From contig JACAFG010000004.1 of NCBI GenBank assembly GCA_019352195.1, positions 21,024 to 85,023 of the forward strand: 64,000 bases of DNA, in the 5' to 3' direction. A program made the translations under genes and the position numbers. The notes beneath the pieces are model-generated. The model did not search any database and was not told where the DNA came from. It saw only the letters and a list, made by a program, of their open reading frames with translations. Position 1 is the first letter of the stretch. The number at the start of each line of letters is the position of its first letter. Shown here one piece after another: positions 3,862-26,368 of this stretch. This DNA is from Candidatus Saccharimonadota bacterium. GTDB taxonomy: Bacteria > Patescibacteriota > Saccharimonadia > UBA4664.

Positions 3862-4977
3862 TTAATCGCGCCGCAACGAGCGCAATGTAACCCGGTACAT
3901 GGCGAGTGTTTGCTCAGTCGTCGCTTTCCAGCTAAAACGCTTGAGCTGTTCGTATCCGGCCGCTACCAACCGAGCGCGCTCGACCTCATTTGCAGTTAAT
4001 ATGTCAATTTTATCCGTTAAATCTGTCGTTGAGTGCGGATCAAAATAGGCGGCGGCGTCTCCGTATACTTCTGGCAGACAAGTCGCGTTAGACGCCAGTA
4101 CTGGTGCGCCGTTCGACATCGCTTCAAGACCTGGCAAACCAAAACCTTCCGATAGCGACGGAAACACAAATAAGCTCGCTTGTTGATAGAGCCGGGTGAG
4201 CTCGTCATCACTGACTCGTCCTACAAACTTTACCCCCGCACCGAGCTTATTTTTGGCGACATATGCGCGCAGCTGTTCTCGGAAATAATCTTCGGGACCA
4301 CCCAAAATCAACTCACCACCGTGTGCCCTGAATTTGCTCACGGCAAACGCATCCACGAGCCGCGCTAGGTTTTTATAAGGGTACGAATTACCAAGCGAAA
4401 ACAAATAGGGTACTTCCGGTGATACTGGCTTAGTCGCGTCTTGCCCGGTCATCTCAAATCCCAATGGAATCGTCGTAAAACGCTCCGGCGGCAAATGAAA
4501 ATGACTCGCCAGGCGGTTTTTAACGTAGTTGGTGGAGCAAATAATGAGTTTAGACTTACGGACCGCATGACGGAGCGTCCAGCGTGAGGCGGCGTACTTC
4601 GCCTCGTATATCACATGCTTTAAACCGTCACCACGGTAGTTTTTAAAATCTACCAAGGTCATATCATGGACATTTGCCACGAAGGGCGCGTTATAAAACA
4701 CCGGCACGGTAAAGTGGGGGAAATGCACTAAATCCGGCTTGAGCGAACGTAAAATTCCCGGCAACCGCAGTTGTTCGGCCACGGTGTAGGGCGCAATATC
4801 AACCCACTCAATGCGAAAATTTGGCGCCACAGGTGCCCAGCGCTTGGCGTCTGCACGCTGCATAAGCACCACGTAGTCGTTGCTGTCATCCTGCTGCTCG
4901 AGGCGCAATAAGAGCTCTTTAGCGTAGCGGCCGATACCGGTCCAGCCAAGCACACGGCCGTCAAAAACAATTCTCAT
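3862..4977 (-). CDS. Glycosyltransferase, GT4 (GT-B) family.
   Basis: C-terminal EX7E-type motif region GFGLPGLEAMSNGAPVLAS. Confidence 0.8.
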   Translation of the reverse strand: MRIVFDGRVLGWTGIGRYAKELLLRLEQQDDSNDYVVLMQRADAKRWAPVAPNFRIEWVDIAPYTVAEQLRLPGILRSLKPDLVHFPHFTVPVFYNAPFVANVHDMTLVDFKNYRGDGLKHVIYEAKYAASRWTLRHAVRKSKLIICSTNYVKNRLASHFHLPPERFTTIPLGFEMTGQDATKPVSPEVPYLFSLGNSYPYKNLARLVDAFAVSKFRAHGGELILGGPEDYFREQLRAYVAKNKLGAGVKFVGRVSDDELTRLYQQASLFVFPSLSEGFGLPGLEAMSNGAPVLASNATCLPEVYGDAAAYFDPHSTTDLTDKIDILTANEVERARLVAAGYEQLKRFSWKATTEQTLAMYRVTLRSLRRD

Positions 4978-4991
4978 GTCACTTAGTATAA

Positions 4992-6038
4992 CTAAGATGC
5001 GCGTTTGAAGCGACGAAAGCGTAGCTGCTGTTGGGGTGGCAGCCCGTGATACAGCTGAGCTTCAATCATGTCGACCGTAACCTGGCGTCGGTGCTGGATA
5101 CGGTATCGACTCACTAAAATCCCGGGAAAATTCCAAACGGCGGTGGCATTGGCCTTAAAGTTAGCCGCAAACAGTCCCCGCTTAATGTCGCTCACCGCCA
5201 TCATGCCCCAGCTTGCCCAAAAGCGCGGTAAATACTTCCAATACAATGCCCCCGGCATGTTTTTGGTATACAGGTAGCTAAAATTCTTCACCGAGTGATA
5301 ACGGGCAAACGGGCTTGGCCCAGCCGCCGTCACAACCGCTGCCTCACCGTCGCCCGCTGCGTTGAGGCGCGCGCTCGTGCCGCCGATACGGTGGCGCACT
5401 ACTGACGCGGGCTCGTACTCGACTTTCCAACCAGCCAAACGCGCCCGAAAACTTATATCGGTGTCTTCGTAGTAAGCAAAAAAGCGCTGGTCAAATAAAC
5501 CTATTTCGCGCAGCATTGAGGCTCGGTACAAACTCGCACCGCCCGAGCCGGCAAAAACGTCACGCTGCTCGGCCGAATCAAATTGACCGGTATCAAGCTC
5601 GTCGCGTCCGCGCGGAAACGGAAACCCCCATGTTGAATACAGATCGCCGGTGGAGTCGAGTCGGGTATCTTCAAAGTGGCGAATTTTCGCCGCCGCAATG
5701 CCCACTTTGGGGTTGCCGGATAAAACCGCTACCAGCTTCTCCAGCCAGTCAGGGGCGGGAATAGCATCGTTATTGAGGAGCGCCGCTGCCTCTACTCTCA
5801 GCTTTAAGGCCGCTTCGAGGCCAGGATTTACTCCACCAGTGAAGCCGTAATTTTTATCACGGCAAATGAGGACAACCTGCGGATAATGTTCACGGATAAG
5901 TTCAACTGAACCATCGGTTGAGCCATTATCAACTACAATCACGCTCGCCGGCAGCGTTTGAGTCAGCGCGCTGTCGAGGCAGTCAGCCAACCAATCGAGG
6001 CCGTTCCAATTGGGAATAACAACTGCGTATTTATGCAT
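4992..6038 (-). CDS. Glycosyltransferase family 2. The start is probably the MHKYAVVIP Met at 6038; the listed ORF extends to 6152 and overlaps wzm.
   Basis: GT-A motif VVIPNWNG ... VIVVDNGSTDGS. Confidence 0.8.
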   Translation of the reverse strand: MHKYAVVIPNWNGLDWLADCLDSALTQTLPASVIVVDNGSTDGSVELIREHYPQVVLICRDKNYGFTGGVNPGLEAALKLRVEAAALLNNDAIPAPDWLEKLVAVLSGNPKVGIAAAKIRHFEDTRLDSTGDLYSTWGFPFPRGRDELDTGQFDSAEQRDVFAGSGGASLYRASMLREIGLFDQRFFAYYEDTDISFRARLAGWKVEYEPASVVRHRIGGTSARLNAAGDGEAAVVTAAGPSPFARYHSVKNFSYLYTKNMPGALYWKYLPRFWASWGMMAVSDIKRGLFAANFKANATAVWNFPGILVSRYRIQHRRQVTVDMIEAQLYHGLPPQQQLRFRRFKRAS

Positions 6039-6068
6039 ATGCCTAGGATAGCTTATAATTGAACGACT

Positions 6069-6881
6069 ATGCATCTCCAGAATATTCTTAGCCACCGTAA
6101 CCGCGCGCTCCTCCGAGAGCTCGTCGCCACCGATTTCAAGCTCAGATACCAAGGCTCGGCCCTCGGCTATCTGTGGTCGCTGTTTCGGCCACTATTCTTG
6201 TTTGCCATCCTTTATATCGTTTTTGGGTACTTTGCGAAGTTTGGCGGCAATATAGATCATTACCCGGTATATTTGCTGCTTGGTATTGTGCTATGGAACT
6301 TCTTTGTTGAAGCAACCAACTTTGGCTTAGGATCAATTGTGAATCGCGGCGACCTTATACGTAAAATCAATTTCCCCAAATATATTATCGTGGTTTCGGG
6401 TAGTATCTCAGCACTGATTAACTTATGTATTAGTTTGGTCGTGGTTCTGCTATTCGTATTACTCGCCGGTATTCATCTCAGGCCCGTGGTAATTTTGTTG
6501 CCGTTTCTTATCGTTGAGCTGTATATTTTTGCGTTGGCCGTCGCCTTCTTTTTATCCGCTCTCTACGTAAAATATCGTGACGTCAGCTACATCTGGGAGC
6601 TGGTTATGCAAGCGGGGATTTATGCCACTCCTATCATTATTCCAATCTCGCTTGTCTTAGCTCAGAGCCGGCTAGCGGCTAAAGTCATGCTCCTCAACCC
6701 TATCGCCCAGATCATCCAAGACGCCCGTTATGTTCTCGTAACTCCCAGCACTGACACGCTTTACAAACTCACCCATAATTGGCTGTCCGTTATTACGCCA
6801 CTAATCATCATCATCGTACTTGTCATTACGGCGGCCCTCTACTTCCGCGCGAACGCCAAATACTTTGCGGAGAATGTGTAA
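6069..6881 (+). CDS. wzm: ABC-2 type polysaccharide export permease (Wzm/TagG/KpsM-like).
   Basis: Six-TM ABC-2 permease with the typical N-terminus RELVATDFKLRYQGSALGYLW. Confidence 0.8.
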   Translation: MHLQNILSHRNRALLRELVATDFKLRYQGSALGYLWSLFRPLFLFAILYIVFGYFAKFGGNIDHYPVYLLLGIVLWNFFVEATNFGLGSIVNRGDLIRKINFPKYIIVVSGSISALINLCISLVVVLLFVLLAGIHLRPVVILLPFLIVELYIFALAVAFFLSALYVKYRDVSYIWELVMQAGIYATPIIIPISLVLAQSRLAAKVMLLNPIAQIIQDARYVLVTPSTDTLYKLTHNWLSVITPLIIIIVLVITAALYFRANAKYFAENV

Positions 6882-8113
6882 TGAACGATCAACCAGTAAT
6901 TCGAGTAAATAAGGTTTCAAAGAGTTTTCGATTGCCTCACGAAAAATACACTGGGCTTAAGCAGGCACTTATCAATTTCCGACCTGGCCGCGGTGAATCT
7001 GAGCAGCAAAAAGTGCTTAATAACATCAGTTTTAATATCAAAAAAGGCGAATTCTTTGGCATTGTTGGGCGTAACGGCAGCGGTAAGAGCACCATGCTTA
7101 AACTGCTTGCCCAAATTTATGTTCCTGACAACGGCGGCGTACACATCGACGGCAGCTTAACGCCATTTATTGAGCTTGGAGTTGGTTTCAACCCAGAGCT
7201 AACAGGTCGTGAAAACGTCTACCTTAACGGTGCTCTCCTGGGCTTTGACCGCAAGCAAACACAGGCCATGTATAACGATATTGTCAGCTTTGCAGAACTT
7301 GAGCCATTTATGGATCAAAAACTCAAAAACTACAGTTCAGGAATGCAGGTTCGCCTGGCCTTTTCGGTGGCCATCCGAGCTCAGAGTGATATTTTGCTCA
7401 TTGATGAAGTGTTGGCGGTGGGCGACGCATTGTTTCAGAAAAAATGTTACGAGTATTTCCGCGAGCTCAAACGTCAGGGCCGCACCGTTGTGTTTGTAAG
7501 CCATGATACCGGCGCTCTTGAAGAGTACTGCGACCGAGGAGCGCTCATCGAAAAAGGTGAACTTATACTTGAGGGCCCAATCACCGATGTAATCACTCGC
7601 TACACCAAAATTTTAAGCTCATCAGAAGTCCAAGAAGCTAACGAGCAGGGAATTAGTGATGATGGGCACTGGGGTTCTGGTTTGGCACGGATCGAGCGCG
7701 TTGGAATTACGACTCCTAGTGGAAAAAGCCAAAACGAGTACAAGGAAGACGAACCCATCAAAGTATCCGTCACTTTTTCTGCCGCCCAGGACATTCCTTC
7801 ACCAGTATGTGGTATCACGATTACCGACATCAAAAATGGCGTCATTTTTCAATCAAATACGCTTTGGGTCAAACAACCACTCCGAGATATGGCCGCGGGA
7901 GACAAGGTTGAACTAGAATGGACGTTGCCAAACTATTTCAATTCGGGTACTTTTTATGTCTCCCCCGCCGTATCGGATCGCTTTGGTATTGAAGTCTATG
8001 ACTGGGCAGAAGGTGCTGCGCAATTTATGGTTACCAAAAAACAAAAGAGCCATGCCGTCATTAACGTAAAACACCAACTAACCGCTCGGTATGAGGACAA
8101 TCAGCGTGGCTAA
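6881..8113 (+). CDS. wzt: ABC transporter ATP-binding protein (Wzt/TagH-like) with roughly 170 aa of extra C-terminal domain.
   Basis: Walker A GRNGSGKST, signature YSSGMQVRLAF, Walker B ILLIDEVLAVGD; ATG overlaps the wzm stop (TAATG); the extended C-terminal beta-rich domain is consistent with a Wzt carbohydrate-binding module. Confidence 0.85.
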   Translation: MNDQPVIRVNKVSKSFRLPHEKYTGLKQALINFRPGRGESEQQKVLNNISFNIKKGEFFGIVGRNGSGKSTMLKLLAQIYVPDNGGVHIDGSLTPFIELGVGFNPELTGRENVYLNGALLGFDRKQTQAMYNDIVSFAELEPFMDQKLKNYSSGMQVRLAFSVAIRAQSDILLIDEVLAVGDALFQKKCYEYFRELKRQGRTVVFVSHDTGALEEYCDRGALIEKGELILEGPITDVITRYTKILSSSEVQEANEQGISDDGHWGSGLARIERVGITTPSGKSQNEYKEDEPIKVSVTFSAAQDIPSPVCGITITDIKNGVIFQSNTLWVKQPLRDMAAGDKVELEWTLPNYFNSGTFYVSPAVSDRFGIEVYDWAEGAAQFMVTKKQKSHAVINVKHQLTARYEDNQRG

Positions 8114-9254
8114 CACCGATGATCTTCCGGCCCAATATGTTCGCCTATCAGCCCAACCGACCGTTCAAGCTGAGGCAGGGTACTGTACGTCCTGCGGTGC
8201 ATTCTCGAGCTTTCGATATGTCGAGATTATCAACGAGCAATTAGCAGCCCAGTGGGAGCTAAACCCGCTTCAACGGGAGCTCTTTAGCGCCCGTGAATCA
8301 CGCTATTGTTTGTTTTGCGGCTGTTCGACTCGTTTACGCAATCAGGCCGAAGCCATACGACTGGTTTTTGACACGAAGGATGAGTACCAGTCGCTCCAAG
8401 AAGCGGTAAGAGGCGGAGTGTTTGCCGATATTAAGGTTGCCGAAATTAATTCTTGTGGCGAGCTGCACCATGTTCTTGAGGAAATTGAGAATCTCAAATA
8501 TTCCGAGTATGTACCGGCTGATACGAGTATTGAGCATCAAGATTTGCTCGGTTTGAGCTATTCCAGCAATTCTTTTGATTTAGTGCTCACCTCCGATACC
8601 CTCGAACACGTACCAGACGCCACCAAGGCCTTCCAGGAGACCTTCCGCATCCTTAAGCCTGGCGGGTACCACATTTTCACCACACCTATCGTGTGGGATC
8701 GCCAGACACGCGCTCGCGTAACTATGGGGAACGGTGAACCGGATCATTTGTTGGCTGATTCATTTCATGGTTCGGGCGAAGACGATTACTTGGTTTGGTC
8801 GGAGTTTGGCGCCGACATCATTACAAACCTCAAGGAAGTTGGCTTTTCACCACAAGTTTTCTTTTTAAACGCCACAAATATTGATGATCCTTCGGCTGTA
8901 ATTGTTGCTCGTAAGGGGGTCTTCACCAAGCCGCTAAATCATCAGCTGGTTGATGGACTCTTTACTGACAAAATTAAGACCGGCTCCAAGTTTGCGTCAG
9001 CCAGTCTCTATCAAAAGAGTTATCAGTTTGATCCCGAATTCCAAGGCCTTAAACTGTCAGCTCTTAGCACTAAACTGCAGCTCACGCTCAATCATGTTGC
9101 CAATCTCGAACATCTTGTAGAAGAACCAAAGCAGAAAATCAACCGGCTTGAAGCCGAGCTTGACGGCATTTACCGCTCCCGTCGATGGAAAATTACCGAG
9201 CCAATGGCGCAGTTTAACGCCTTTTTCCGGCGCTTTCGCAGTCCTCGCGACTAG
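8091..9254 (+). CDS. Class I SAM-dependent methyltransferase with an N-terminal zinc ribbon and a C-terminal coiled-coil segment.
   Basis: Zinc ribbon CxxC...CxxC (CTSCGAF ... CLFCGCS); methyltransferase core LVLTSDTLEHV ... ILKPGGY; a helical segment NRLEAELDGIY near the C-terminus. Confidence 0.65.
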   Translation: MRTISVANTDDLPAQYVRLSAQPTVQAEAGYCTSCGAFSSFRYVEIINEQLAAQWELNPLQRELFSARESRYCLFCGCSTRLRNQAEAIRLVFDTKDEYQSLQEAVRGGVFADIKVAEINSCGELHHVLEEIENLKYSEYVPADTSIEHQDLLGLSYSSNSFDLVLTSDTLEHVPDATKAFQETFRILKPGGYHIFTTPIVWDRQTRARVTMGNGEPDHLLADSFHGSGEDDYLVWSEFGADIITNLKEVGFSPQVFFLNATNIDDPSAVIVARKGVFTKPLNHQLVDGLFTDKIKTGSKFASASLYQKSYQFDPEFQGLKLSALSTKLQLTLNHVANLEHLVEEPKQKINRLEAELDGIYRSRRWKITEPMAQFNAFFRRFRSPRD

Positions 9255-10588
9255 TCGAACTTCAAGTATTGTTCGAGCTGCTCATCGACGCCTTTGAGCG
9301 TATGAGCGAGGGTTTTATCCCAGTTGTCGGCAATAGTCGTGGTTGCTAGGTTTTTCATCCGCGTCTCATACGACATACTAGCGGCCTTCTTTATTCCAGC
9401 AGTAATAGCCTCAACCGATAAGTCGGTGATAACAATATTATCCGAATAGTTTGATAAGTCATGTTTAGTGACGTATTTAGTGGTAACAACGGCCGAGCCA
9501 ATCGAGGCAAACTCGAGCGTGGGGTAGTTGGGGTGCGGCGCCATCATAGGTGTCAGCGCCACATCAATGGTTTTTGAAAAAGTGATGTATTCATCCATAC
9601 CCATTTTACCGAGGTTCTTAATGATGGCGCCACTCGAAAGCTTAATATTGGGCAGATTGTTTTGTCCGGCCATCCAAATTTCCCATTCGCTAGCTACCAA
9701 ACCACCGTCACTAAAAGCCCGGTTGAGGGCATCGAGGCTGAGGTGGAACAAATTTCGTTCCACATTTGGTCGGCCATACAAGAACAATTGTTTTTTCTTG
9801 CCGGTATTATCGACGGCTTTGCCACTTGCGAGTCTTGATACGGCCGGCTCAAACCAGAGACCGTTATCTTTAATATAGTCATAACCTTGGTGGGTCATAA
9901 ATTTATACATCAGTTCAGTGTTACAGACTGGGATAAATCGATTCGTCCGATAGGTATTCTCAGCCAAGACTGCCATATCACCGTTGGCGTAAAAGATGGG
10001 TTCAAAATCCTGAATCAGGTATATGAACTTGTGAGTTAAAGGTAGCTGCTCAATCAGTTGCGCGTCCCACCAGGCTGAGACGATAAAAATATCGTCTGGC
10101 CGCATATCGAGGTAACCATAAATATTATAGCGGCGAGCTGAAATATCGATAAGCTCGACACTAGCTGCGTCGATAGCTATACCATTGGCAGTAAAAAATT
10201 GCTCGAGACCGCGGCCATCACCAGTCTCGCTGGTTTGAATAATGCGCAATGGCATATGATGGCGCTCCGCCAGTTTGGCAGCAAAAATGAGCGCCGTAGC
10301 TACTCCACCGTAAAAACCACGGCTTGTGAGGCTCGGTACCACCAAAGCCACTTTTGCTGGACGGCCAATCGCTGGTAACGAGGGATTTAGTGGCACAATG
10401 AGAGGAATTGAACTGTAGATTTTTTCTTCAAACGTCATTTCACTGCGTGCGCGCACACTATAATCGGTGCCAAGTAAAATACGCAGCGACTTATCTTCAA
10501 TCCGGGCAAACAATACCGCCATTTTGTAGGTAATTTTGTGACCAATATTAGCTAGTTTGCGAATAACTCGCAGTGCAAACTGCATCAT
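9251..10588 (-). CDS. Glycosyltransferase (WsaF-like / GT-B rhamnosyltransferase-like).
   Basis: 445-aa soluble GT-B-like protein; its position is in the glycan locus; the family assignment is tentative. Confidence 0.5.
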   Translation of the reverse strand: MMQFALRVIRKLANIGHKITYKMAVLFARIEDKSLRILLGTDYSVRARSEMTFEEKIYSSIPLIVPLNPSLPAIGRPAKVALVVPSLTSRGFYGGVATALIFAAKLAERHHMPLRIIQTSETGDGRGLEQFFTANGIAIDAASVELIDISARRYNIYGYLDMRPDDIFIVSAWWDAQLIEQLPLTHKFIYLIQDFEPIFYANGDMAVLAENTYRTNRFIPVCNTELMYKFMTHQGYDYIKDNGLWFEPAVSRLASGKAVDNTGKKKQLFLYGRPNVERNLFHLSLDALNRAFSDGGLVASEWEIWMAGQNNLPNIKLSSGAIIKNLGKMGMDEYITFSKTIDVALTPMMAPHPNYPTLEFASIGSAVVTTKYVTKHDLSNYSDNIVITDLSVEAITAGIKKAASMSYETRMKNLATTTIADNWDKTLAHTLKGVDEQLEQYLKFD

Positions 10589-11442
10589 CGAAAATCCTCT
10601 TGGTTAGTAATAGCGGGTAAGTAGCGGTCACCAACTTCAATATCGAAACCCTGCATATATGACCGGTAGGACCAATAAAAATCGTTATAGGGGATTGGTA
10701 TAAAAGCGCGCGACTGACTTTCTTTGTGCAGCAAGAACCCGCCCCCAACAAACCAAGTTTGCATACCGGTGTGATTGAGGCGGATACAAAGATCAACGTC
10801 ACCGCCACAAATAATAAACCGAGTATCCATACCACCTACACCGACATACTTGGCTTTTTCTACTACCTGCACAGCGCCTGTAACGGCCGTCATCGCCAGA
10901 TCGGTGGTAATGTCATATGGGAAGATAGACACATCGCGATCCGCTGCAATTGACTGACTATAGCGTCTGCCGGCATACAAATGTTCTGCCTGACCTTTGG
11001 GGCGCAAGAATACTCCCCCGTGCTGAATCGTATTGCCGTCGCCATAGAGTAAAGTACACCCCACGATGCCAACTTTCGGATCAGCCGCCTTGGCAACCAT
11101 GCGCTCGATCAGTCCCGCCGACTCTGGCCTCAACTCGGTGTCATTATTTAGGAGAAGCAGAAATTGGCCGGTCGCCTGCTCTACGCCAAAATTCATCAGT
11201 TTTTGATAATTGAAGGGGTGGTTATACTCAAAGATCTTAATAAATGGGCGACTTACTGTAGCAAGCTTAATTGCCTCTAGCTCATCAGGCGACGAATTAT
11301 TACTAAGTAAAATAATTTCACGCAAACGTGGACCAAACTTCAGGAGCGAATCGACCGCAAGCATGGTCAGTTTCGCCTTGTTATGGAATGGGATTACCAC
11401 CGATAGATCGAGCTTGTCGGAAGAAGAAGTCGCCTCACTCAT
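10585..11442 (-). CDS. Glycosyltransferase family 2.
   Basis: SVVIPFHNKAKL ... GT-A fold motifs; 4-nt overlap with the downstream gene. Confidence 0.8.
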   Translation of the reverse strand: MSEATSSSDKLDLSVVIPFHNKAKLTMLAVDSLLKFGPRLREIILLSNNSSPDELEAIKLATVSRPFIKIFEYNHPFNYQKLMNFGVEQATGQFLLLLNNDTELRPESAGLIERMVAKAADPKVGIVGCTLLYGDGNTIQHGGVFLRPKGQAEHLYAGRRYSQSIAADRDVSIFPYDITTDLAMTAVTGAVQVVEKAKYVGVGGMDTRFIICGGDVDLCIRLNHTGMQTWFVGGGFLLHKESQSRAFIPIPYNDFYWSYRSYMQGFDIEVGDRYLPAITNQEDFR

Positions 11443-11483
11443 AAGGAGTATTATAGCAAACCGAGAGCATATGGCCTAAGTAG

Positions 11484-12770
11484 TTACTGCGCGTTGGTGT
11501 ACCAGGCGACACCGTCCATAAGATAGCCACAGCTTGCAATCGCAGAGTTGACCTCGGCCTGGCTAGTCGTGAAGAGGTGGTCGCTATTATGGGCGTTACG
11601 AAGTCGGTATACCGGCATCAAGCCTGCTGCGGGATTGGGTTCGGCCACAAAGGCCGGTCCTTCAATGCGGTACCCATATTGGCGCACGGCGTTATTGGCC
11701 TCATCTTGGCTAATGGTGTAAAAGTGCATGCCATTTGGTGCTACCAGGCGCATAACGGGTGCTGTTGTACCACTGGGGGCATCGACAAAAGCAATACCTT
11801 CTTTGCGGAAGCCATTATTAACCGTGTACATCCATTCGGCGTAGCTTGATGTATAAAAGTGCTCGCCGGTCCTCGGGTTTGCCGATCGGAAAATGGTACC
11901 GGTCGGATAGGCTGATGTCGAACCTGCCCCAAAGAACGTTTCAAAAATACCGGGGAAACTCTGTCCTAAGTGCGGCGTGTATTGGTAGAGCGACGCGGTT
12001 GACCCATTTTCGAGATAGATCGACTGTCCGTCAATTGTAGCGTAGCCATTGTAGTAATTTAGGGCACAGCTACCGCAGCGGGCAAATGTGCCTTGAGTCA
12101 TATATCCGCCGTAGGTGAGCGCATCATCGCCGTCATAGGCCGTGTTACCGATACTGCGTTCCTTATTAAATTTGAACTGCCAACCAGCCCACAATACTTG
12201 TTTACTAAAACCAGCGTAGCGCTCGTGATTCACGCACGTGCCGGTAATACCAATAGTTGGATAATCGTGCAAGGTTAGCGTATCGGGACAATCATAACCA
12301 AGAGCAGCTGCATATCGTCCCGGTGTACAGCTGGTGCCAGTAACAAGGCTTTCTTCTTTTTGTAGTGTCGCCAGAATAACCTGCGGGTTAAGCCCCCATT
12401 GGTTGGCAGAGCGAAAAATGGCAGCCGAGGCGCTGATAGTACTCGGGCCGTAGCTTGAACTCCACGCCGCCGTCGCGTATAGCGGATCAGACGGGTCAGT
12501 AATATCACCATAATGCCAATGCGAACCGTCCCAGTAAAAGTTAGGTGTTTGATAGCTAGCTAGACACGTTGAGGCTGCACTAAGACGATGATCGCTACCG
12601 TCCAAAAACGATTGAATCTGTGCCTGAGTCATTGAGCCAACATTATCGAACACGGCATCATCAATGAGGTGCGAATCGGTGTATGCCAAAGCGGCCTGCG
12701 GCGCTACCATCAGCAGTGACCCGAGCGTAAGCGCGAGTGAGCTTATAAGGGCTGGGATAAAGCGTTTCAT
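11484..12770 (-). CDS. Secreted protein with three C-terminal repeats of about 45 aa (HFYT-S-E...GY-EG-AF), possibly a cell-wall-associated hydrolase.
   Basis: Signal peptide MKRFIPALISSLALTLGSLLMVAPQAALA; the three tandem repeats are read directly from the translation. Confidence 0.45.
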   Translation of the reverse strand: MKRFIPALISSLALTLGSLLMVAPQAALAYTDSHLIDDAVFDNVGSMTQAQIQSFLDGSDHRLSAASTCLASYQTPNFYWDGSHWHYGDITDPSDPLYATAAWSSSYGPSTISASAAIFRSANQWGLNPQVILATLQKEESLVTGTSCTPGRYAAALGYDCPDTLTLHDYPTIGITGTCVNHERYAGFSKQVLWAGWQFKFNKERSIGNTAYDGDDALTYGGYMTQGTFARCGSCALNYYNGYATIDGQSIYLENGSTASLYQYTPHLGQSFPGIFETFFGAGSTSAYPTGTIFRSANPRTGEHFYTSSYAEWMYTVNNGFRKEGIAFVDAPSGTTAPVMRLVAPNGMHFYTISQDEANNAVRQYGYRIEGPAFVAEPNPAAGLMPVYRLRNAHNSDHLFTTSQAEVNSAIASCGYLMDGVAWYTNAQ

Positions 12771-13387
12771 TTGCGGATCTCCAATGTGTAGGGGGCCGAG
12801 TAGCCGACCTTATTACCAATTCTTGCTACTAAACGGACTTGCCAATCACCAACAGCGAGCTTAGCCGCAGCGTTCCAATCGAGCTCGACAAAGTAGTTGT
12901 CAGACGAAACGAGGCTTGGACCTGCCACCGTAATCGGGTTATTAATATCGGTATAGGCCTGCACTTCACAGGTAGCTCCTGGTAGCGAGTAGCAGGTCGA
13001 TACCATTTCGGGACTAAATTGTGGCTGGGTACTGCTGAGCGAAATATATTCACTTGGTTGGGCATTCTTGTCACCCTTATTTAGCACTTGGCCAGTGGGG
13101 GCAGCTAACGGTAGTGGGGCAGGTGTAGCCGTTGGATTGGCCACCGGAGCCGTCGTAGGCGTGGGCGTTGAGGTGCCAGTTTGAGAGGTACCGGCGGCAC
13201 CAGGGCCAACTGTTGGGGTTGGGCTCGCGCTGGGTTGGGGCGTTGATAGGGTTAATTTGGAACGATTCGAGGATATTAAGGCGACACTGACAATTATTAC
13301 GACCAGTAAAAGCGCGACCATAAGTGGCAGCCATCTGGGTAAATTTTTCTTTTTTAGCTTAACCATCATTACCTGTAAGCATACCAT
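12767..13387 (-). CDS. Membrane-anchored protein with a Pro/Thr-rich linker.
   Basis: N-terminal TM helix, a PT-rich spacer, a small C-terminal beta domain; ATGA overlap with the upstream gene. Confidence 0.5.
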   Translation of the reverse strand: MVCLQVMMVKLKKKNLPRWLPLMVALLLVVIIVSVALISSNRSKLTLSTPQPSASPTPTVGPGAAGTSQTGTSTPTPTTAPVANPTATPAPLPLAAPTGQVLNKGDKNAQPSEYISLSSTQPQFSPEMVSTCYSLPGATCEVQAYTDINNPITVAGPSLVSSDNYFVELDWNAAAKLAVGDWQVRLVARIGNKVGYSAPYTLEIRK

Positions 13388-13413
13388 AATTCTACCTGGT
13401 AACGAGGCGTTTG

Positions 13414-15384
13414 CTACGGAGTGGGTGCTGAGATTACGTGGTATAAGGTGAGCGTCTGGTTCGGGTAACTAACGGAGTCTGATGGCACCAAACATGGCGA
13501 GTTTATGGCTTCGGCGCTCAAAATGTAATCCAAATGCTGGGCGATGTATGGATCGCAACCGGCCAGCTCGACCGCAAAATGGTCGCCGCCCAGCAAACTA
13601 AAACCACGCTTCGGTCCAATCACTAAAGTAATGTGGGCAAATCGGTTATAAACTTTCTGACTTGCCGCAGAATCACTGATCGGCTTCCAAAGTGATAGTT
13701 GCGGATACTCTTCGACGCCCGTAATTGTCTGACGCCCGGCTAACAGTGGGAAATTTTCGAACACCACCGAATTATTAACCGCAATTCGACTGGTAGCAGG
13801 CGTTGACTCCAACATCTTGATGACTGCGGAGTCTGTCAGCACTGCGAGGCCGCGATAGAGGGGCATCACCCCATTTGCCGAGTAGATCGATATGCCCGCC
13901 AAAATAAACACACCCAGCACAGCCGTGCGGCGCCATACGATGAAGGCAGCGGATACTGCAACTACACTCGCCAGTAACACAATGAGCCAAATTTCAGGCA
14001 TATAACCGGGATAGTGCCGGTGAAAACGCTCACCAACAAGCAAGGTTACGGCCAAGGCAGAACCGCCTGCCAACAACATTACTAAGGGTGACCGAGTTGG
14101 TTTAAAAGCGATCAGGTGGCGGTATATGAGCACGAGTTGCATGAAGCCAAGCACACCAAGGCCAATCAAAATACGTTCGGGCGGAACATATTGCAACAGC
14201 AATAAACGGTAGGGCAAATTGGGCCATGGCAAAACCATTCGAGCGACCAACACTACATACATGGCATTAACACCCAAGAGCATCCAGTCGATATGATGAT
14301 GTTTACGCCAAGCTGTAACAATAAAATACAGTGACGGCAATACAAGATATGGTGCCACCAAAATAAAGTTCGAAGCCTCGCTTTGGTTGTGGGGCAAACT
14401 TATTGCCCGTAACGGGTTGGTTAGCTGGGACGACATGAAATTACCAAACAGCAGGACTAAATTATAGCCGCCGCTGGTGACGAGGCGTTTGCCGGGATAG
14501 ACGGTATGGGTAATGGCAGCAACGGCATCTGGACGAGTTTTTATGAACACAAGAGCAATAATACCGGCCATCAAACCGGCACCGGTAATATAGATGAAAT
14601 TTAGCCAAAACTGCCTCTGATCAGCTTCAGTATATGTTTCGATACCATATCCAATTAGCAGCACCGCCATTGCCAGCGCGCACGGGATTTGGAAGGGGGG
14701 ATACATAATAAGTGCAAATGCCGCCGCCAAATATACCAGTAAAACACTGAGTGATATTCGCACCCAAGTATGTCTCGTTCGCCACAGCCGCATGATAACG
14801 ATACTCATGGTAAGAACGTACACAATAGGCGCAATCGTAATAGTCTGATACCACCAAAAGATAAACGGATTTATCGATACGACCAATGCCGCACCGATGG
14901 CGTAGAGGCGGTGTTTTGGCACAAGTTCAAGCGCAAAGAAATAGGCTGAGATGAGTAAAGCTGCCAGCAGCAGCCACCACTTAAAAGCAAAAGCATACTC
15001 AACCGGCATCACAAAGAAGGCTAAGTTTTGTGGTTTGAACGCCACACTCCACTCGCGGTAAGGCACGTCGGCAACTATCGACATATCTTGGCCGTTACCA
15101 ACATCAACGTTTGTTCGTGGCCAGCCGGCTTTTTGTTGCGCCAAAATGAGCTGCGTGTTTACCAGCCATTCATCAGAGCGAACGGGGCGAATCGTGCCGC
15201 TCACCAAGTTAGTATCCGCACCAGTTTGAGCGGTAACATAGCGATAATAGCCCACCGAGCTACCCGACAGTCGTAGCACGGTCAAAATAATTAGTCCCGC
15301 CACCACAACGGCAGGAAATAGCCACACCGACTGAATCACTCGTCGCCACCACGGCACCGGCGATGAATGTATTTGCTTCACCAT
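13414..15384 (-). CDS. Large polytopic membrane protein, putative GT-C fold glycosyltransferase (YfhO/GtrC-like) using a polyprenol-P-sugar donor.
   Basis: 656 aa, more than 10 predicted TM helices, an extracytoplasmic loop after TM1 and a C-terminal soluble domain; the gene context includes a polyprenol-P GT2 and a small 4-TM flippase-like protein. Confidence 0.5.
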   Translation of the reverse strand: MVKQIHSSPVPWWRRVIQSVWLFPAVVVAGLIILTVLRLSGSSVGYYRYVTAQTGADTNLVSGTIRPVRSDEWLVNTQLILAQQKAGWPRTNVDVGNGQDMSIVADVPYREWSVAFKPQNLAFFVMPVEYAFAFKWWLLLAALLISAYFFALELVPKHRLYAIGAALVVSINPFIFWWYQTITIAPIVYVLTMSIVIMRLWRTRHTWVRISLSVLLVYLAAAFALIMYPPFQIPCALAMAVLLIGYGIETYTEADQRQFWLNFIYITGAGLMAGIIALVFIKTRPDAVAAITHTVYPGKRLVTSGGYNLVLLFGNFMSSQLTNPLRAISLPHNQSEASNFILVAPYLVLPSLYFIVTAWRKHHHIDWMLLGVNAMYVVLVARMVLPWPNLPYRLLLLQYVPPERILIGLGVLGFMQLVLIYRHLIAFKPTRSPLVMLLAGGSALAVTLLVGERFHRHYPGYMPEIWLIVLLASVVAVSAAFIVWRRTAVLGVFILAGISIYSANGVMPLYRGLAVLTDSAVIKMLESTPATSRIAVNNSVVFENFPLLAGRQTITGVEEYPQLSLWKPISDSAASQKVYNRFAHITLVIGPKRGFSLLGGDHFAVELAGCDPYIAQHLDYILSAEAINSPCLVPSDSVSYPNQTLTLYHVISAPTP

Positions 15385-15468
15385 TGTTGTCTATAGTATG
15401 CCAACAGTGAGCGGTTTGCCCAGTGCCCAATTGTTCTTTTAGGGAGTTTCAATTAGGCTTAAGTCCTA

Positions 15469-15834
15469 ATGCTATATATTATCGGTATCCTCGTCGCCTT
15501 TTTGCTCGTCTGCGGCCAAGCGTTATGGAAAGTGGGCGTCCAGCACGCGCATTTAGAGCTTACGGCCGGTTACTTGTTCTCAAAGCAGGTCTTTAGTCTG
15601 ATTTTTTCGCCCTACATTATTGGCGGAGCGGTTATTTATGCCTTTGCCACGCTTATGTACCTGGGGCTACTGGCAAAATATCAGTACTCGACAGTTCAAG
15701 GTCTGGTGGTGCCCGTCTCACTCATTTCGGCCTTTTTGCTCGCGCGCGTAGTCTTCAACGAGCGCCTCAGCGTCGTGAATTATGTTGGCCTCGGTGTCTT
15801 GGTGGTCGGAATTTTGCTGGCCACGCGCCGCTAA
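15469..15834 (+). CDS. Small 4-TM DMT/EamA-like protein (ArnE/ArnF or GtrA-type lipid-linked sugar flippase candidate).
   Basis: 121 aa, four hydrophobic helices; C-terminal ERLSVVNYVGLGVLVVGILLA resembles SMR/EamA helices. Confidence 0.55.
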   Translation: MLYIIGILVAFLLVCGQALWKVGVQHAHLELTAGYLFSKQVFSLIFSPYIIGGAVIYAFATLMYLGLLAKYQYSTVQGLVVPVSLISAFLLARVVFNERLSVVNYVGLGVLVVGILLATRR

Positions 15835-16187
15835 GGCTTATTTGAGAGCCGAATCGAAAGTTCACGGTTGAGTTGATCGAGACGCTGCTCGAGCCGATCA
15901 ACCTTTGAATATAGCCGGAAAATCATCGACACTGAGAATATACCGGCGGTAATGGCCACCACGTCGTACAAACTTAGCGGCGTTGAGTCGGTGAGTGAGT
16001 TGATTTGCAAATAGCGAAAAATTGGCTCGGCAAAAAGTAAACCTAGCCCGACCAACACCCACAAAACAATCGTGGTAACGGCCCGAAACCGGCTTACCCG
16101 GTGCTGGCTAAGCGCCTGCAAATTTCGACCAATGCCAATAATGACAAACGCAATATTAAACAAAAACAGTAAGACGTACTTAAGCAT
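15831..16187 (-). CDS. DUF2304-like small membrane protein.
   Basis: 118 aa, two TM segments plus a C-terminal coiled coil (RLEQRLDQLNRELS); this family commonly accompanies GtrB-like GT2 genes. Confidence 0.5.
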   Translation of the reverse strand: MLKYVLLFLFNIAFVIIGIGRNLQALSQHRVSRFRAVTTIVLWVLVGLGLLFAEPIFRYLQINSLTDSTPLSLYDVVAITAGIFSVSMIFRLYSKVDRLEQRLDQLNRELSIRLSNKP

Positions 16188-16884
16188 CTATCAACTCCAG
16201 CATTTTGCGCTTGACCAGATTCTTCACAATATTAAATCCATTCCAGTTACTTTGGCCCTTAGCAATCGAATAGTCGGTATATATAGCCTGCGCGGGAATT
16301 TCTTCCACCCTCAAATTTTGCTGCTTGGCACGCCACAGCATCTCGGAGCAAAACTCATACCCCGTAGATTTAAGGTTAATTTGCTCGAGCGCTTTGCGGT
16401 TCAGCGCGCGCAGGCCAGATTGCGAATCTGTTACGCCAATGCCAAACAATACCTTAGTGATAAAACTAAGGCCCTTATTGCCTATCACGCGGTACCACAG
16501 CATCCCCGTGCTATCAATCAGGCGGCTGCCAATAATGAGGTCATACTTATCCTCGGTAATGGCATCAATGAGCTTTTTAACATCGGCTGGCGCGTGCTGG
16601 CCATCGGCATCCATTGTCACCACATATTGATAGCCTTCGGCCTTAGCATACGCCAGACCAGTTGTAGTTGGGCCACCGGCACCTCCCGAGTTGAGAATAT
16701 GGCGTATTACCGTTACTCCCGCCGCTTCGGCTACATCGGCCGTGTTATCGGTCGAACCGTCATCAACTACGATCATATCGTGGGTCTCAATGCCGGTAGT
16801 GGCTAGGGTCGAAGTTATTACTTCGCCAATCACCGTCCCTTCATTCCAGGCAGGAATTAAGATAGCCACTCGTCGCTGCTTCAT
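16180..16884 (-). CDS. Polyprenol-phosphate glycosyltransferase (GT2; DPM1/GtrB/ArnC-like).
   Basis: VAILIPAWNE ... VVDDGSTDNT ... TMDADGQH motifs characteristic of dolichyl/undecaprenyl-phosphate sugar synthases. Confidence 0.85.
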   Translation of the reverse strand: MKQRRVAILIPAWNEGTVIGEVITSTLATTGIETHDMIVVDDGSTDNTADVAEAAGVTVIRHILNSGGAGGPTTTGLAYAKAEGYQYVVTMDADGQHAPADVKKLIDAITEDKYDLIIGSRLIDSTGMLWYRVIGNKGLSFITKVLFGIGVTDSQSGLRALNRKALEQINLKSTGYEFCSEMLWRAKQQNLRVEEIPAQAIYTDYSIAKGQSNWNGFNIVKNLVKRKMLELIDA

Positions 16885-16916
16885 AGTAATACCATCATAT
16901 ACGATTATTATTGAAC

Positions 16917-17798
16917 CTACCGGGCAAAACCAGGCTTTTCACTCAAAATTTGCTGTAAATAAGCGCCGTAACCACTCTTTTTTAACGGCTCCGCCAGTGC
17001 TGCCAATTGTTCGCTCGAAATATAGCCTTCGCGCCAGGCAATTTCTTCGGGACAACCGACTTTTAAACCCTGACGTTCTTCGATTACTCGCACGAATTCA
17101 CTTGCCTGCATCATGGAAGTAAACGTACCGGTGTCCAGATACGCCACGCCACGGTCTAACACGCCGACTTTGAGCTTCCCTTGTTGTAAATAGACGTTGT
17201 GCAGCTCGGTAATTTCCAGTTCGCCGCGGGCGCTGGGTCTAATCTGCTTAGCGTACTCCACGACGGTATTATCGAAGAAGTAGAGCCCCGGGATAGCGTA
17301 ACTACTTTTGGGATGAGCGGGCTTTTCTTCAATCGACAACGCCTTCATCGAACTATCAAACTCAACGACGCCATAGCGCTCTGGATCTGACACATGGTAA
17401 GCAAATATTGCCCCACCATCGACATCTTGATACCGCTTTAATTGATCACCCATGCCGACACCATAAAAAATGTTGTCACCCAGAATGAGACAGACCTTCT
17501 CGTCGCCAATAAAGTTGGCTCCGACAATAAACGCGTCCGCTAGTCCCCTCGGTTCGGCCTGCTCGGCGTACGTTATTGAGCAGCCCCACTGCGCCCCGTC
17601 ACCTAACAGTCGCTGAAACTGCGCCTGATCGTGCGGCGTTGTAATAATGAGAATTTCACGAATGCCTGCCATCATCATGGTTGAGAGGGGATAATATATC
17701 ATTGGCTTGTCGTAAATGGGCATGATCTGCTTACTAATACCGCGCGTAATAGGGTAGAGCCGCGTCCCCGAGCCGCCCGCGAGGATTATGCCCTTCAT
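16917..17798 (-). CDS. rmlA: Glucose-1-phosphate thymidylyltransferase.
   Basis: [18 protein letters not shown] ... signature of RmlA/RfbA. Confidence 0.93.
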
Positions 17799-18371
17799 CT
17801 AGCGTGCTCTCCGGAAGCAATCACTGTAATAACTTCAAGAGCCGCTTGATGCATTTCGGTTTTTCCCAAAAGAGTCACATCGCAAATTATTCCATCCCGG
17901 AGGCTAGCAACCGAATTATGAAGTTCACGGCGCAAATCGATGGTGGCGCTGATAGTTTTAGCGAGCCCCTCGGCATTAAATGATTCATCGTAGACACCGT
18001 TTTTGGGTTTTTTCACTGACGCGGGCGGCAAACCGCTCACGAATGAGCTCCATTGAGGCCTCAACCAACATGAAATTGATCCGAGCCTTCTGCTCAAAGT
18101 ACGGCGACTCTAGAACTTCAGACGGTTTGGTGATACCGCAGATAATAGTGGTTTGACCACTAGTTTGACGCTTAACTGCCTCGTACAATAATTCCTCAAC
18201 CCGGTACACGCGCCAAGGTCCGCGGCCAATCTCCGGTACACCGTTTTCATCGATGTCATGAAAAGCAACCGTACTCAAGCTAGTGTCGGCTCGCAAACTC
18301 TCGTAGAGCGTGGTCTTCCCGACTGCACTAGTTCCGGTAATAAAAAGAATGAAGGCTTTATCTGGCTGCAT
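17795..18371 (-). pseudogene. P-loop kinase-like gene (AAA_33-like) broken by a frameshift near an A-run around 18000-18030.
   Basis: Two overlapping ORFs in different frames (17985-18431 and 17795-18097); Walker A ILFITGTSAVGKTTL; the frame switches within cgcgtcagtgaaaaaacccaaaaacgg. Confidence 0.55.
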
Positions 18372-18373
18372 CG

Positions 18374-19399
<1,026 letters not shown>

Positions 19400-20647
19400 C
19401 TATTCGGCCGCTTTCACGGCGACGATTGGAGGAGCTACCGGTTGGTTGGAAGTACTTTCGATCGCCAGCTTGCGGCCACGCCGCCTAATCTGCCATCGCC
19501 GATTAATGGCTGCCACCCCGCTGTAAACTCGTTTTGAAGCTGCGATAGCCCCCGCATCCACATATTTGGCGTACAGATATGCGGAGGTGAATATCAGTAT
19601 GAGTGAAGGAATAAGCATAATGATAAAGCTGGCCCGGTAGCCATGCCCGCCAACAATGAGGTAGTAAAATAGGTAGCTCGAGAATGAAGCCAAGATAATA
19701 AAGTGCAGCAGGTAGAGCGAGAACGAAATGGTTCCCAAAAATTGTGCCGGCCGGCTATTCAGCCAATTTTGAACTCCTACCGTCGTCAAAACGCCACCCA
19801 ATACGAACGCCGCTCCCAAGATATGGGCTTCAATCACCAATTGGGCAATTGTAGTCGACGTCATAATAGACAGCGGCGCGTACAAGGTGTGCTCGAGCGG
19901 TCCCGAAGGCATAGCGCCAAAATACAGGCCGACCAGAAGCAGTACCCACCCACTCGAACCAATCCGGGCCTTAATTTTATCGTAATACTCTGAATGAACG
20001 ACGTCACATAGCGCAATTCCGATGACAAAACAGACGTAATACGTTTGCCACAATAACCCCCCAAGCAAGACATAAACAGCTAATCGGTTCGTATATTTGG
20101 TAAACAACGTCACGAGGCCAAATACCATCAGTGAGCCCCATAACTCAATGTGCATCGTCCATAATGGACCATCAAAATTGTGACTATCCAAAAAGAACGT
20201 TTGCCCAGCTTCAACCACCGCTTGGTGAAACGTGGGGGTAAAACCCCAGAGCCCCTGTAGCCAATCGCTGCCGCTCTGAAACGCCGCTCGCTGGTTAAAA
20301 GTAAGACCCAGCTTCATCATCCAGTAGGCCAATAATATGGCGCCGGCTGCTGGCAGCCATAGCCTTGCATATCGCTTAGCAATCGTTGGTACCAAGTCAA
20401 ATCCTTCGCCCGTTCGAAAGAAGCGTTGGCTAAGGACGAAGCCGCTGAGGATAAAAAATAGACAAACGGCAAAGTTGCCGTTAAACAAAATGTATAGCGG
20501 CGTTTGCCGAATAACCCACTCGTACGCGTGGTGCGAGGGATCATTAGTCGCGCCAATAGCAACAGGGAAGTAAGCGAACCAGTAGTGGTCAAACACTACT
20601 GTTAGCGCTGCCACCCCGCGCAGGCCATCCAAAAACCTAGTCCTCAC
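19400..20647 (-). CDS. Acyltransferase family 3 membrane protein (O-acetyltransferase OafA/YrhL-like).
   Basis: N-terminus RFLDGLRGVAALTVVFDH typical of acyltransferase-3; 10 or more TM helices. Confidence 0.8.
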   Translation of the reverse strand: MRTRFLDGLRGVAALTVVFDHYWFAYFPVAIGATNDPSHHAYEWVIRQTPLYILFNGNFAVCLFFILSGFVLSQRFFRTGEGFDLVPTIAKRYARLWLPAAGAILLAYWMMKLGLTFNQRAAFQSGSDWLQGLWGFTPTFHQAVVEAGQTFFLDSHNFDGPLWTMHIELWGSLMVFGLVTLFTKYTNRLAVYVLLGGLLWQTYYVCFVIGIALCDVVHSEYYDKIKARIGSSGWVLLLVGLYFGAMPSGPLEHTLYAPLSIMTSTTIAQLVIEAHILGAAFVLGGVLTTVGVQNWLNSRPAQFLGTISFSLYLLHFIILASFSSYLFYYLIVGGHGYRASFIIMLIPSLILIFTSAYLYAKYVDAGAIAASKRVYSGVAAINRRWQIRRRGRKLAIESTSNQPVAPPIVAVKAAE

Positions 20648-20735: not shown

Positions 20736-21377
20736 TTACTCCGGGGCAGTTTCGGCCAGATGTTCGAGCATCACGGGATCGCTTGACGCGGACAGCCAAT
20801 GCGGCGCAAAGTCTGCGATCATGCCACTGTCGTCGCCATCCGAGGTGCCGGTCGCCCAGCAGTTATAGAACGTGAGGAGGCCGATACGGTTGCGGTTGAG
20901 CGCTTGCACCGCAAACCACGTATCGGGTGGCACCAGGAGCCCTCGGGTTGGCTTAATCTCTTCGGCGACAACGGCGCCGAAGTTGTCGATCACCACCGCC
21001 AAATACGTTCCCACAGTTGGAATGAGGTAGCAGTAGTGGCTATACAACTGCCGCGGGCCCCATACCGAGTAGATCTTGGCGACTTCATGGCTTTCGAGAG
21101 CCAGGTCACCGCTGTGTTTGACCCCGAGTAACTCCAGAATCTCGGCGCTGATGGGGGTGTGGACGGCCCCAAAATTCGTCTTTCTCACCGGCACCACCAC
21201 CACAATAAGGCCGTTGATGGTTATTGAGTGTATGAGCGTGAAGGTCATCTCAGCTCCAAACTGGGTCGTGAACGCGGAAAAATAGGCTGCGTTCACACTA
21301 CGGCCCTTGAGCGTCGCTGTCAACGTTGTCCCAGATACGGAAGCTGTCATAAATAGTCGGTTTGCGGTAAAACACAT
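20736..21377 (-). CDS. Cupin-fold protein, possibly a dTDP-sugar 3,4-ketoisomerase or epimerase (FdtA/WxcM/RmlC-like).
   Basis: Position next to rmlA/rmlB; loose similarity of GLLVPPDTWFAVQALNRNRIGLLTFYNCWATGTSDGDD to the FdtA-type cupin core; weakly supported. Confidence 0.4.
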   Translation of the reverse strand: MCFTANRLFMTASVSGTTLTATLKGRSVNAAYFSAFTTQFGAEMTFTLIHSITINGLIVVVVPVRKTNFGAVHTPISAEILELLGVKHSGDLALESHEVAKIYSVWGPRQLYSHYCYLIPTVGTYLAVVIDNFGAVVAEEIKPTRGLLVPPDTWFAVQALNRNRIGLLTFYNCWATGTSDGDDSGMIADFAPHWLSASSDPVMLEHLAETAPE

Positions 21378-26293: not shown

Positions 26294-26368
26294 TCCGGAG
26301 TAGCTCAGTGGTAGAGCGAGCGACTGTTAATCGCTTGGTCGTCGGTTCGAGCCCGACCTCCGGAGCCA
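26294..26368 (+). tRNA. tRNA-Asn (anticodon GTT) with an encoded CCA.
   Basis: Manual cloverleaf: acceptor TCCGGAG/CTCCGGA, D-arm GCTC-AGTGGTA-GAGC, anticodon stem AGCGA/TCGCT with loop CTGTTAA, T-arm GTCGG-TTCGAGC-CCGAC, discriminator G, CCA. Confidence 0.88.

Follow-up and report, generated by a model that had tools for sequence, protein, structure and literature searches.

Does this Saccharibacterium encode a route by which a sugar is linked to a lipid inside the cell, carried across the membrane and attached to a glycan at the cell surface? The question is raised by four adjacent genes in a 64,000-nt stretch of the genome of a Candidatus Saccharimonadota bacterium (assembly GCA_019352195.1, contig JACAFG010000004.1, positions 21,024 to 85,023 of the forward strand). 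This whole stretch is called the window, and all coordinates given below are positions in it. The four genes lie between 13414 and 16884 and encode a large membrane protein of the DUF7657/DUF7654 family, a small protein with four transmembrane (TM) segments, a DUF2304 protein and a family 2 glycosyltransferase (GT2). Our reading, to which we give a probability of about three in four, is that they form a module that makes a lipid-linked sugar on the inside of the membrane, flips it and attaches it to a surface polymer on the outside.

All four open reading frames (ORFs) were confirmed as real genes, with exactly the coordinates and strands of the first-pass annotation. The large gene (13414-15384, minus strand) encodes 656 amino acids with 13 TM segments by hydropathy and is referred to as the GT-C gene, for the glycosyltransferase fold of its predicted product. 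It is followed by the gene for a drug/metabolite transporter (DMT)- or small multidrug resistance (SMR)-like protein (15469-15834, plus strand; 121 aa, 4 TM segments), the DUF2304 gene (15831-16187, minus strand; 118 aa, 3 TM segments) and the GT2 synthase gene (16180-16884, minus strand; 234 aa, no TM segment). The hydropathy counts agree with the more than 10 and the four TM helices first expected for the large and the small membrane protein. The public annotation of the identical contig JABBYD010000049.1 (GCA_017884045.1) calls the same genes, and the sole discrepancy concerns the start of the large gene: an ATG at 15384 (656 aa) here, as against a start 15 codons downstream (641 aa) there. 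Conservation in the family alignment begins only at about residue 19, and both starts are compatible with it. The DUF2304 gene runs over the stop of the GT2 gene by 8 bp, and a spacer of 84 bp separates the divergent 4-TM and large genes. A promoter and terminator scan of 11300-17900 gave counts no higher than expected from shuffled sequence. Rfam and tRNA scans of the window found a single match, a tRNA-Asn at 26294 that is unrelated to the module.

The large protein has highly significant matches to two Pfam families, DUF7657 (3.8e-84; 283 bits against a cut-off of 26) and DUF7654 (1e-16; 61 bits against a cut-off of 27), and both domains are present in all 56 aligned members of its family. 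The family is extensive, with 3,668 representatives at 50% identity for E values up to 1e-3 and 2,163 for E values up to 1e-30. DUF7657 is mentioned in no paper of the searched literature, and no relevant paper there combines Saccharibacteria with GT-C enzymes. Named GT-C models in Pfam, including YfhO (PF09586) and PMT_2 (PF13231), were matched by none of the 56 members at E values up to 1; apart from DUF7657 and DUF7654, the scan returned only a GtrA domain in one fusion protein and one match to DUF6541. An hhalign comparison of the family profile with Escherichia coli ArnT was likewise null (probability 1.5%). When the profile was compared with all PDB sequences no GT-C enzyme was found, the only match being a designed repeat protein at 0.011.

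The predicted structure points to the GT-C fold. An AlphaFold2 model computed from the 56-sequence alignment has a predicted local distance difference test score (pLDDT) of 91.3 and a predicted TM-score (pTM) of 0.93, and the 15 best Foldseek matches to it in the PDB are all GT-C enzymes (STT3, ArnT, AftA, PglB, EmbA/B/C and AftD). The TM-scores to these solved GT-Cs are modest, between 0.30 and 0.45, but only GT-C enzymes yield long structural alignments with the model. Transporters appear only lower, at about 0.1, and a reading of the large protein as a permease was rejected on these matches. The 13 TM helices place the N-terminus inside and the C-terminus outside, in keeping with the positive-inside rule (7 Lys/Arg residues in short inner loops, 1 in short outer loops). 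Of 92 invariant or nearly invariant positions, 85 fall in outer loops or in the outer halves of helices. Outer loop 1 carries the motif R69-S-D71-E72-W, in which R69, D71 and E72 are invariant among the 56 sequences; a DE motif in loop 1 has been described as the hallmark of GT-C enzymes, PMTs and ArnT among them. The other invariant polar residues that face outward are Y228, Q232, Y296, R300, N333-E336 and R404, which are plausible ligands of the donor phosphate or sugar. The last 150 residues, corresponding to DUF7654, make up an outer domain rich in beta structure, which has two invariant cysteines and recalls the domains with which AftD and GT136 bind their acceptors.

On the modelled fold, the topology and the motif, we regard the large protein as a GT-C-fold glycosyltransferase, and a transferase chemistry is what these features would imply. 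The first-pass annotation had suspected a divergent GT-C, and this suspicion was well placed: the fold is that of GT-C enzymes and there is no detectable sequence likeness to ArnT or PMT_2. The same annotation described the protein as YfhO-like and as lacking the canonical motifs. Neither description survives, as no family member matches the YfhO model and the loop-1 motif is invariant.

For the donor synthase, the GT2 at 16180-16884 matches Pfam Glycos_transf_2 (1.3e-28). Its best NCBIfam match is to the mycobacterial polyprenyl-phospho-GalNAc synthase PpgS, over the full length (1.6e-48, 165 bits), followed by AglJ, dolichyl-P hexose transferase, PgfS and ArnC. The best match among solved structures is the Pyrococcus DPMS (5mlz; 8.1e-15, residues 4-217), with ArnC at 1.5e-9, and the DDGS, DAD and D..SG motifs align with those of the solved relatives. 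As judged by these matches, the protein is a member of the polyprenyl-phosphate glycosyltransferase clade, of the GacI/PpgS subtype. The GtrB/ArnC/DPM1-like polyprenol-phosphate enzyme originally proposed is thus borne out by the matches to PpgS, DPMS and ArnC, although the protein has no TM helices, unlike GtrB and ArnC. Orthologues of this short GT2 are 232-245 aa long and also lack C-terminal TM helices. The neighbouring gene product (15831-16187) had been named a DUF2304 protein. It matches the Pfam model at 1.6e-5, with 25.5 bits, which is exactly the gathering cut-off, and 25 of 26 orthologues match the model too. For two other DUF2304 proteins, GacJ and Rv3632, there is experimental proof that they bind or stimulate their synthases, GacI and PpgS, and by analogy the protein encoded here is presumed to be a GacJ/Rv3632-type activator or membrane tether of the synthase.

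The 121-aa protein was analyzed with a profile built from orthologues adjoining DUF7657 genes (29 members). Matches to EamA at E values of 0.01 or better were found for 27 of the 29 (best 7.9e-7), and 15 match TMEM234. Among solved proteins the profile matches EmrE (1.7e-4) and, weakly, SLC35B1. A DMT/EamA protein with four TM helices and the size and topology of GtrA/ArnE/ArnF flippases had been proposed. Its size and topology agree with those of ArnE/ArnF, to which its profile has weak similarity. Identity as a GtrA protein (PF04138) was rejected, since neither the protein nor any of its 28 orthologues has a GtrA match in Pfam. A GtrA profile seeded from a fusion protein described below (P0039) matched no ORF in the window. 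The gene is present in single copy in the window and in related loci, with no tandem pair of the ArnE/ArnF kind. The family has a K+R bias near zero (mean -0.55, range -2 to +1 among the 29 members), from which we infer an EmrE-style homodimer of dual topology, rather than an ArnE/ArnF-like heterodimer, as the probable form of the protein. A glutamate, E98, is nearly invariant. On these sequence features the protein is a candidate flippase for a polyprenyl-phosphate sugar.

Conservation of the module was assessed in 77 genomes with a DUF7657 homologue, scoring partner genes within 10 kb of the DUF7657 gene; 54 of the loci are fully flanked. These genomes are mostly from Saccharibacteria, together with 8 from Micromonospora, 1 from Dormiibacterota and a few bins bearing other labels. 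Among the fully flanked loci, a DPMS-like GT2 is near the DUF7657 gene in 47, a 4-TM or GtrA protein in 41, and both in 41, which answers the question of co-conservation that the first-pass annotation had posed. Neither is found in 7 of the 54, mostly from Micromonospora. The donor genes come in two principal forms. The first is that of the window, a short TM-less GT2 with DUF2304 (26-28 loci); DUF2304 occurs only in loci with the short TM-less GT2 (28 and 26 loci). The second, found in about 25 loci and typical of oral Nanosynbacter genomes, has a GtrB/ArnC-like GT2 of 315-330 aa with two C-terminal TM helices, usually beside GtrA. In a third, rarer arrangement a short divergent GT2 directly adjoins the GT-C gene. 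Thus two interchangeable donor modules, with two types of flippase, surround a single GT-C family in Saccharibacteria. One locus (L005, 9515-11920) encodes an 801-aa protein, P0039, in which a GtrA domain (PF04138, 3e-12) is fused N-terminally to DUF7657/DUF7654. Such a protein is a strong argument that the sugar used by the GT-C is lipid-linked and has been flipped.

The homologues in Micromonospora (L012, L013, L018, L020-L022, L027 and L066) are about 36-37% identical to the Saccharibacteria proteins, and the DUF7657 gene there ends a GT2/GT4/GT2/GT2 operon, which is again a glycan context. Exchange of genes between epibiont and host is conceivable, as Actinobacteria are the hosts of cultivated Saccharibacteria. 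Four bins labelled Nevskiaceae (L026), Burkholderiales (L050), Gammaproteobacteria (L052) and Chlamydiae (L077) have the gene arrangement typical of Saccharibacteria (DUF7657 with DUF5648, the 4-TM gene and RmlA at about 1e-140). Their proteobacterial and chlamydial labels are probably binning or labelling errors.

To judge from sequence, the genes around the module are those required for a polysaccharide that contains a 6-deoxyhexose and depends on an ATP-binding cassette (ABC) transporter. Pfam matches identify a GT4 (3862-4977, minus strand), a GT2 (4992-6152, minus), Wzm (6069-6881, plus), Wzt with a Wzt_C domain (6779-8113, plus), a methyltransferase (8091-9254, plus), a WsaF-type glycosyltransferase (9251-10588, minus) and another GT2 (10585-11442, minus). 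These backbone and export assignments agree with the public annotation of the same contig. The Wzt and methyltransferase genes overlap by 23 bp. In other ABC-dependent pathways Wzt_C is a carbohydrate-binding module that recognises the capped terminus of the glycan. By analogy with E. coli O8/O9a or the Geobacillus S-layer glycan, the pairing of Wzt_C with a methyltransferase suggests a methyl-capped polymer with control of chain length.

On the other side of the module are the enzymes for the dTDP-6-deoxyhexose precursor, RmlA (16917-17798, minus; NTP_transferase, 4e-70) and RmlB (18374-19369, minus; GDP_Man_Dehyd/Epimerase, 1.6e-72), with a small AAA_18-like ORF (17985-18431) between their genes. 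Next to RmlB lies an Acyl_transf_3 membrane acyltransferase (19400-20647, minus; PF01757, 1.7e-22), which likely O-acylates the same glycan. Within 10 kb of the GT-C gene, RmlA is found in 48 and RmlB in 61 of the 77 loci, and the exported polymer is likely a rhamnan. Immediately before the glycan locus are dnaA (404-1840, minus), yidC (2551-3354, plus) and a KH/R3H gene resembling jag/khpB (3354-3809, plus), which put the locus beside the probable origin region of the chromosome. Three sizeable ORFs, at 20736-21377 (minus), 32529-33122 (plus) and 35233-36210 (plus), match no Pfam family.

Two further genes accompany the GT-C gene on its downstream side. The nearer one (12767-13387, minus) encodes p206, a protein with an N-terminal TM anchor, a disordered linker rich in Ser, Thr and Pro, and a small C-terminal beta domain; it matches no Pfam family. 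Of the 77 loci, 64 have a homologue of p206, which as a rule follows the GT-C gene at a distance of 50-100 bp. Their alignment combines a variable, low-complexity linker with conserved residues C140, G180 and W182. The Ser+Thr content of the linker averages 0.27, compared with a background of 0.14, and is at least 0.25 in about half of the homologues. The protein could be either an accessory protein or a candidate substrate for glycosylation. The farther gene (11484-12770, minus) encodes a secreted lysozyme-like (GH73-like) hydrolase with a C-terminal triple repeat of DUF5648, a putative glycan- or cell-wall-binding module. It is found near the GT-C gene in 61 of the 77 loci. NCBIfam has no model matching the large protein, the 4-TM protein, p206 or the DUF5648 protein.

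From these components the following pathway can be proposed. On the cytoplasmic face, the TM-less GT2, held at the membrane and stimulated by the translationally coupled 3-TM DUF2304 protein, would load polyprenyl phosphate with a sugar taken from a nucleotide sugar. Our best guess for this sugar is an N-acetylhexosamine (HexNAc), since no characterised relatives of the synthase are closer than PpgS and GacI. The polyprenyl-P-sugar would then be moved to the outer leaflet by the 121-aa, 4-TM candidate, probably working as an antiparallel homodimer like EmrE. The 13-TM GT-C, as modelled, would bind the lipid-linked donor at an outward-facing site and transfer the sugar to an extracytoplasmic acceptor. 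In the model the donor site comprises loop 1 (R69, D71, E72), the long loop 283-343 (Y296, R300, N333-E336) and R404; the catalytic base would be D71/E72, and the C-terminal DUF7654 domain, which contains a disulfide, possibly aids in binding the acceptor. The acceptor would most likely be the 6-deoxyhexose (rhamnose-type) wall polysaccharide of the same locus, built in the cytoplasm by the GT4, the two GT2s, the WsaF-type glycosyltransferase and RmlA/RmlB, probably capped by the methyltransferase and exported via Wzm/Wzt. The make, flip and attach scheme suggested earlier for these genes gains support from the homology of the parts, from the fold, topology and motif of the GT-C and from the co-conservation of the genes, while the sugar, the flipping and the acceptor are inferred.

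Several observations weigh against this pathway, and they bear on different steps of it. The GT2 scores well under the PpgS equivalog cut-off (165 against 370 bits) and is not a PpgS equivalog; with a score so far below the cut-off, its sugar cannot be named from PpgS. Its sequence would rather place it in a subfamily paralogous to PpgS, with the same architecture and a sugar that may differ. As for the flipping step, it is possible, if the odds are against it, that the 4-TM protein is an unrelated SMR/DMT exporter and that flipping is carried out by a protein encoded elsewhere in the genome, or by the GT-C or synthase complex. Taken alone, the 121-aa protein remains below the Pfam threshold (EamA at 0.032, 15 bits against a cut-off of 28.2 bits), its best solved relative, EmrE, is a drug/cation exporter, and the hhalign likeness of its profile to E. 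coli ArnE (E value 3e-4) and ArnF (1e-4) is marginal, with probabilities of 40-57%. The gene is limited to 32 of the 77 loci and absent from the other 45; many genomes carry GtrA in its place, and in several loci the two occur together. In the window it is the only one of the four genes on the plus strand, and according to a review the flipping of a polyprenyl-P-hexose by a 4-TM DMT has yet to be demonstrated in a Gram-positive-type system. However, about 19 genomes have the 4-TM gene directly beside the GT-C gene, abutting or overlapping its start on the same strand. The 4-TM and GtrA proteins also behave as alternatives, one or the other being present in 41 of the 54 full loci, and the window has no GtrA-family ORF. 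Moreover, ArnE and ArnF, which are annotated as subunits of the flippase for undecaprenyl-phosphate-4-amino-4-deoxy-L-arabinose (Ara4N), belong to the same class of size and topology. We retain the 4-TM protein as the candidate for this step.

As regards the acceptor, the closest syntenic partners of the GT-C gene are p206 and the GH73-like/DUF5648 protein and not the donor genes, which makes a different acceptor possible. In Micromonospora no partner gene lies within 10 kb of the DUF7657 homologue. A search of the locus and of ten ORFs of matching size from the rest of the window turned up neither rmlC nor rmlD, so that the name rhamnan is provisional; the 6-deoxyhexose may be other than L-rhamnose, or rmlC and rmlD may lie elsewhere in the draft genome. 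One alternative keeps the donor machinery and makes the GT-C a protein O-glycosyltransferase that acts on the Ser/Thr/Pro-rich linker of p206 and perhaps on other surface proteins. It has precedents in PgtC2/YfhO and the Pgf system of streptococci and in Pmt of Actinobacteria. We consider it unlikely, and favour a polysaccharide acceptor because Wzm/Wzt, RmlA/RmlB, the WsaF-type glycosyltransferase and the methyltransferase share the locus, rml genes are near the GT-C gene in most genomes, and the pathway of the group A carbohydrate (GAC) provides a direct precedent, in which an ABC-exported rhamnan is decorated by GacL from N-acetylglucosaminyl-phosphoryl-undecaprenol (GlcNAc-P-Und). More speculative still, and to our mind rather improbable, is the view that the core unit of this new GT-C family is a conserved triad of the GT-C, p206 and the GH73-like autolysin with its DUF5648 lectin; the sugar added by the GT-C, on a wall polysaccharide or on an anchored protein, would then be the ligand that positions or restrains the hydrolase. 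Finally, the large protein might not be a glycosyltransferase but instead serve as a permease, polymerase, ligase or structural membrane protein, and only by chance be encoded beside the GT2/DUF2304 pair. The lack of sequence likeness to any characterised GT-C (ArnT, the PDB and the Pfam GT-C models, as above) and the modest TM-scores are in its favour, but with only GT-C enzymes giving long alignments to the model we hold it to be very improbable.

The mechanism proposed for the module, attachment of a flipped sugar to a surface polymer, is a well-known one; its final enzyme, by contrast, comes from a large family without a sequence link to any characterised GT-C. The combination of a Gac/Ppg-type synthase and activator, an ArnE/ArnF-like flippase candidate and a DUF7657 GT-C is not described in the literature searched. 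In well-studied bacteria, extracytoplasmic decoration of wall polymers controls phage receptors, the targeting of autolysins, immune recognition and tolerance to antibiotics. Such decoration is hardly known in Saccharibacteria and other bacteria of the Candidate Phyla Radiation (CPR), which live attached to bacteria. The large orphan family DUF7657/DUF7654 gains a testable function, and members of it occur in culturable oral Nanosynbacter strains, which are genetically manipulable. If the function is confirmed, CAZy would gain a GT-C family, and the system by which a major uncultivated lineage decorates its surface glycans would be identified. The link of the GT-C to a GH73-like wall hydrolase is conserved; if the added sugar did position or restrain the hydrolase, as the triad reading has it, the decoration of surface glycans in epibiotic Saccharibacteria would be tied either to the separation of cells or to an attack on the wall of the host.

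Among known systems, the Gac pathway of Streptococcus pyogenes shows several likenesses to this locus. There, too, a TM-less GT2 makes HexNAc-P-undecaprenol and is stimulated by a 3-TM DUF2304 partner, a polytopic GT-C uses the lipid-linked sugar outside the membrane, and the acceptor is a rhamnose-type wall polysaccharide exported by the ABC transporter of the same locus, as we would suppose it to be here. The differences are in the later components and in the organism: GacL is a GT-C of the PMT_2 type, a family to which the DUF7657/DUF7654 protein cannot be linked by sequence; GacK, the flippase proposed there, is of the Wzx type and not a 4-TM DMT/SMR-like protein; and the organism is a Firmicute rather than a Saccharibacterium. 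A paper on the pili of TM7x mentions a rhamnose polysaccharide and gacI, but these are the host's and not a locus of the Saccharibacterium itself. The system of PpgS (Rv3631) and Rv3632 in Mycobacterium tuberculosis, which places galactosamine (GalN) on arabinogalactan, contains the best NCBIfam match of our GT2, and its DUF2304 protein Rv3632 is co-transcribed with PpgS, which it stimulates. That pathway also ends with a GT-C enzyme, Rv3779. It differs from the present locus in its acceptor polymer, and no deacetylase gene is found in the locus here.

The same three-component logic underlies ArnC/ArnE-ArnF/ArnT of E. coli and Salmonella, which attaches Ara4N to lipid A, and the glucosylation of O antigen by GtrA/GtrB/Gtr(type). 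ArnC is a detectable homologue of the GT2, ArnT is among the structural matches of the large protein, and ArnE and ArnF are DMT-type proteins with four TM helices, the size of the 121-aa protein and weak profile similarity to it. On the other hand, ArnC and GtrB have C-terminal TM helices and need no DUF2304 partner, while the GT2 described here is without TM helices; and ArnE and ArnF are a heterodimer encoded by two genes, where a single gene is present in the window. In CsbB/GtcA/YfhO and GtrB/PgtC2 of Firmicutes, systems that glycosylate teichoic acid and Ser/Thr-rich disordered regions, a GT-C also works outside the membrane from a C55-P-sugar. The PgtC2 system can use as its acceptor a disordered, Ser/Thr-rich segment in a protein anchored in the membrane, and p206 has this architecture. 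These systems differ in having a membrane-anchored synthase and a GtrA-type flippase, and in a YfhO model that the 56 members of our family do not match.

An Emb/Aft-type arabinosyltransferase system was considered and rejected, on the grounds that no polyprenyl phosphoribose synthase is encoded in the locus and that the enzyme for the donor is a GT2 resembling DPMS. The closest parallel to the way in which the large protein was recognised is GT136 of Citrobacter youngae (ORF12, in a pentofuranose system), a GT-C that was likewise identified from its AlphaFold fold and gene context. Its catalytic Asp follows closely on TM1, and its C-terminal domain is rich in beta structure and binds carbohydrate. 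Its system differs from ours in using a polyprenyl phosphoribose synthase as the source of the donor and a MATE flippase, in the 11 TM helices of the enzyme, and in its Gram-negative O antigen. GT136 founded a new CAZy family, lacking sequence similarity to the existing ones, and by this precedent the DUF7657 family would count as new once its activity is demonstrated.

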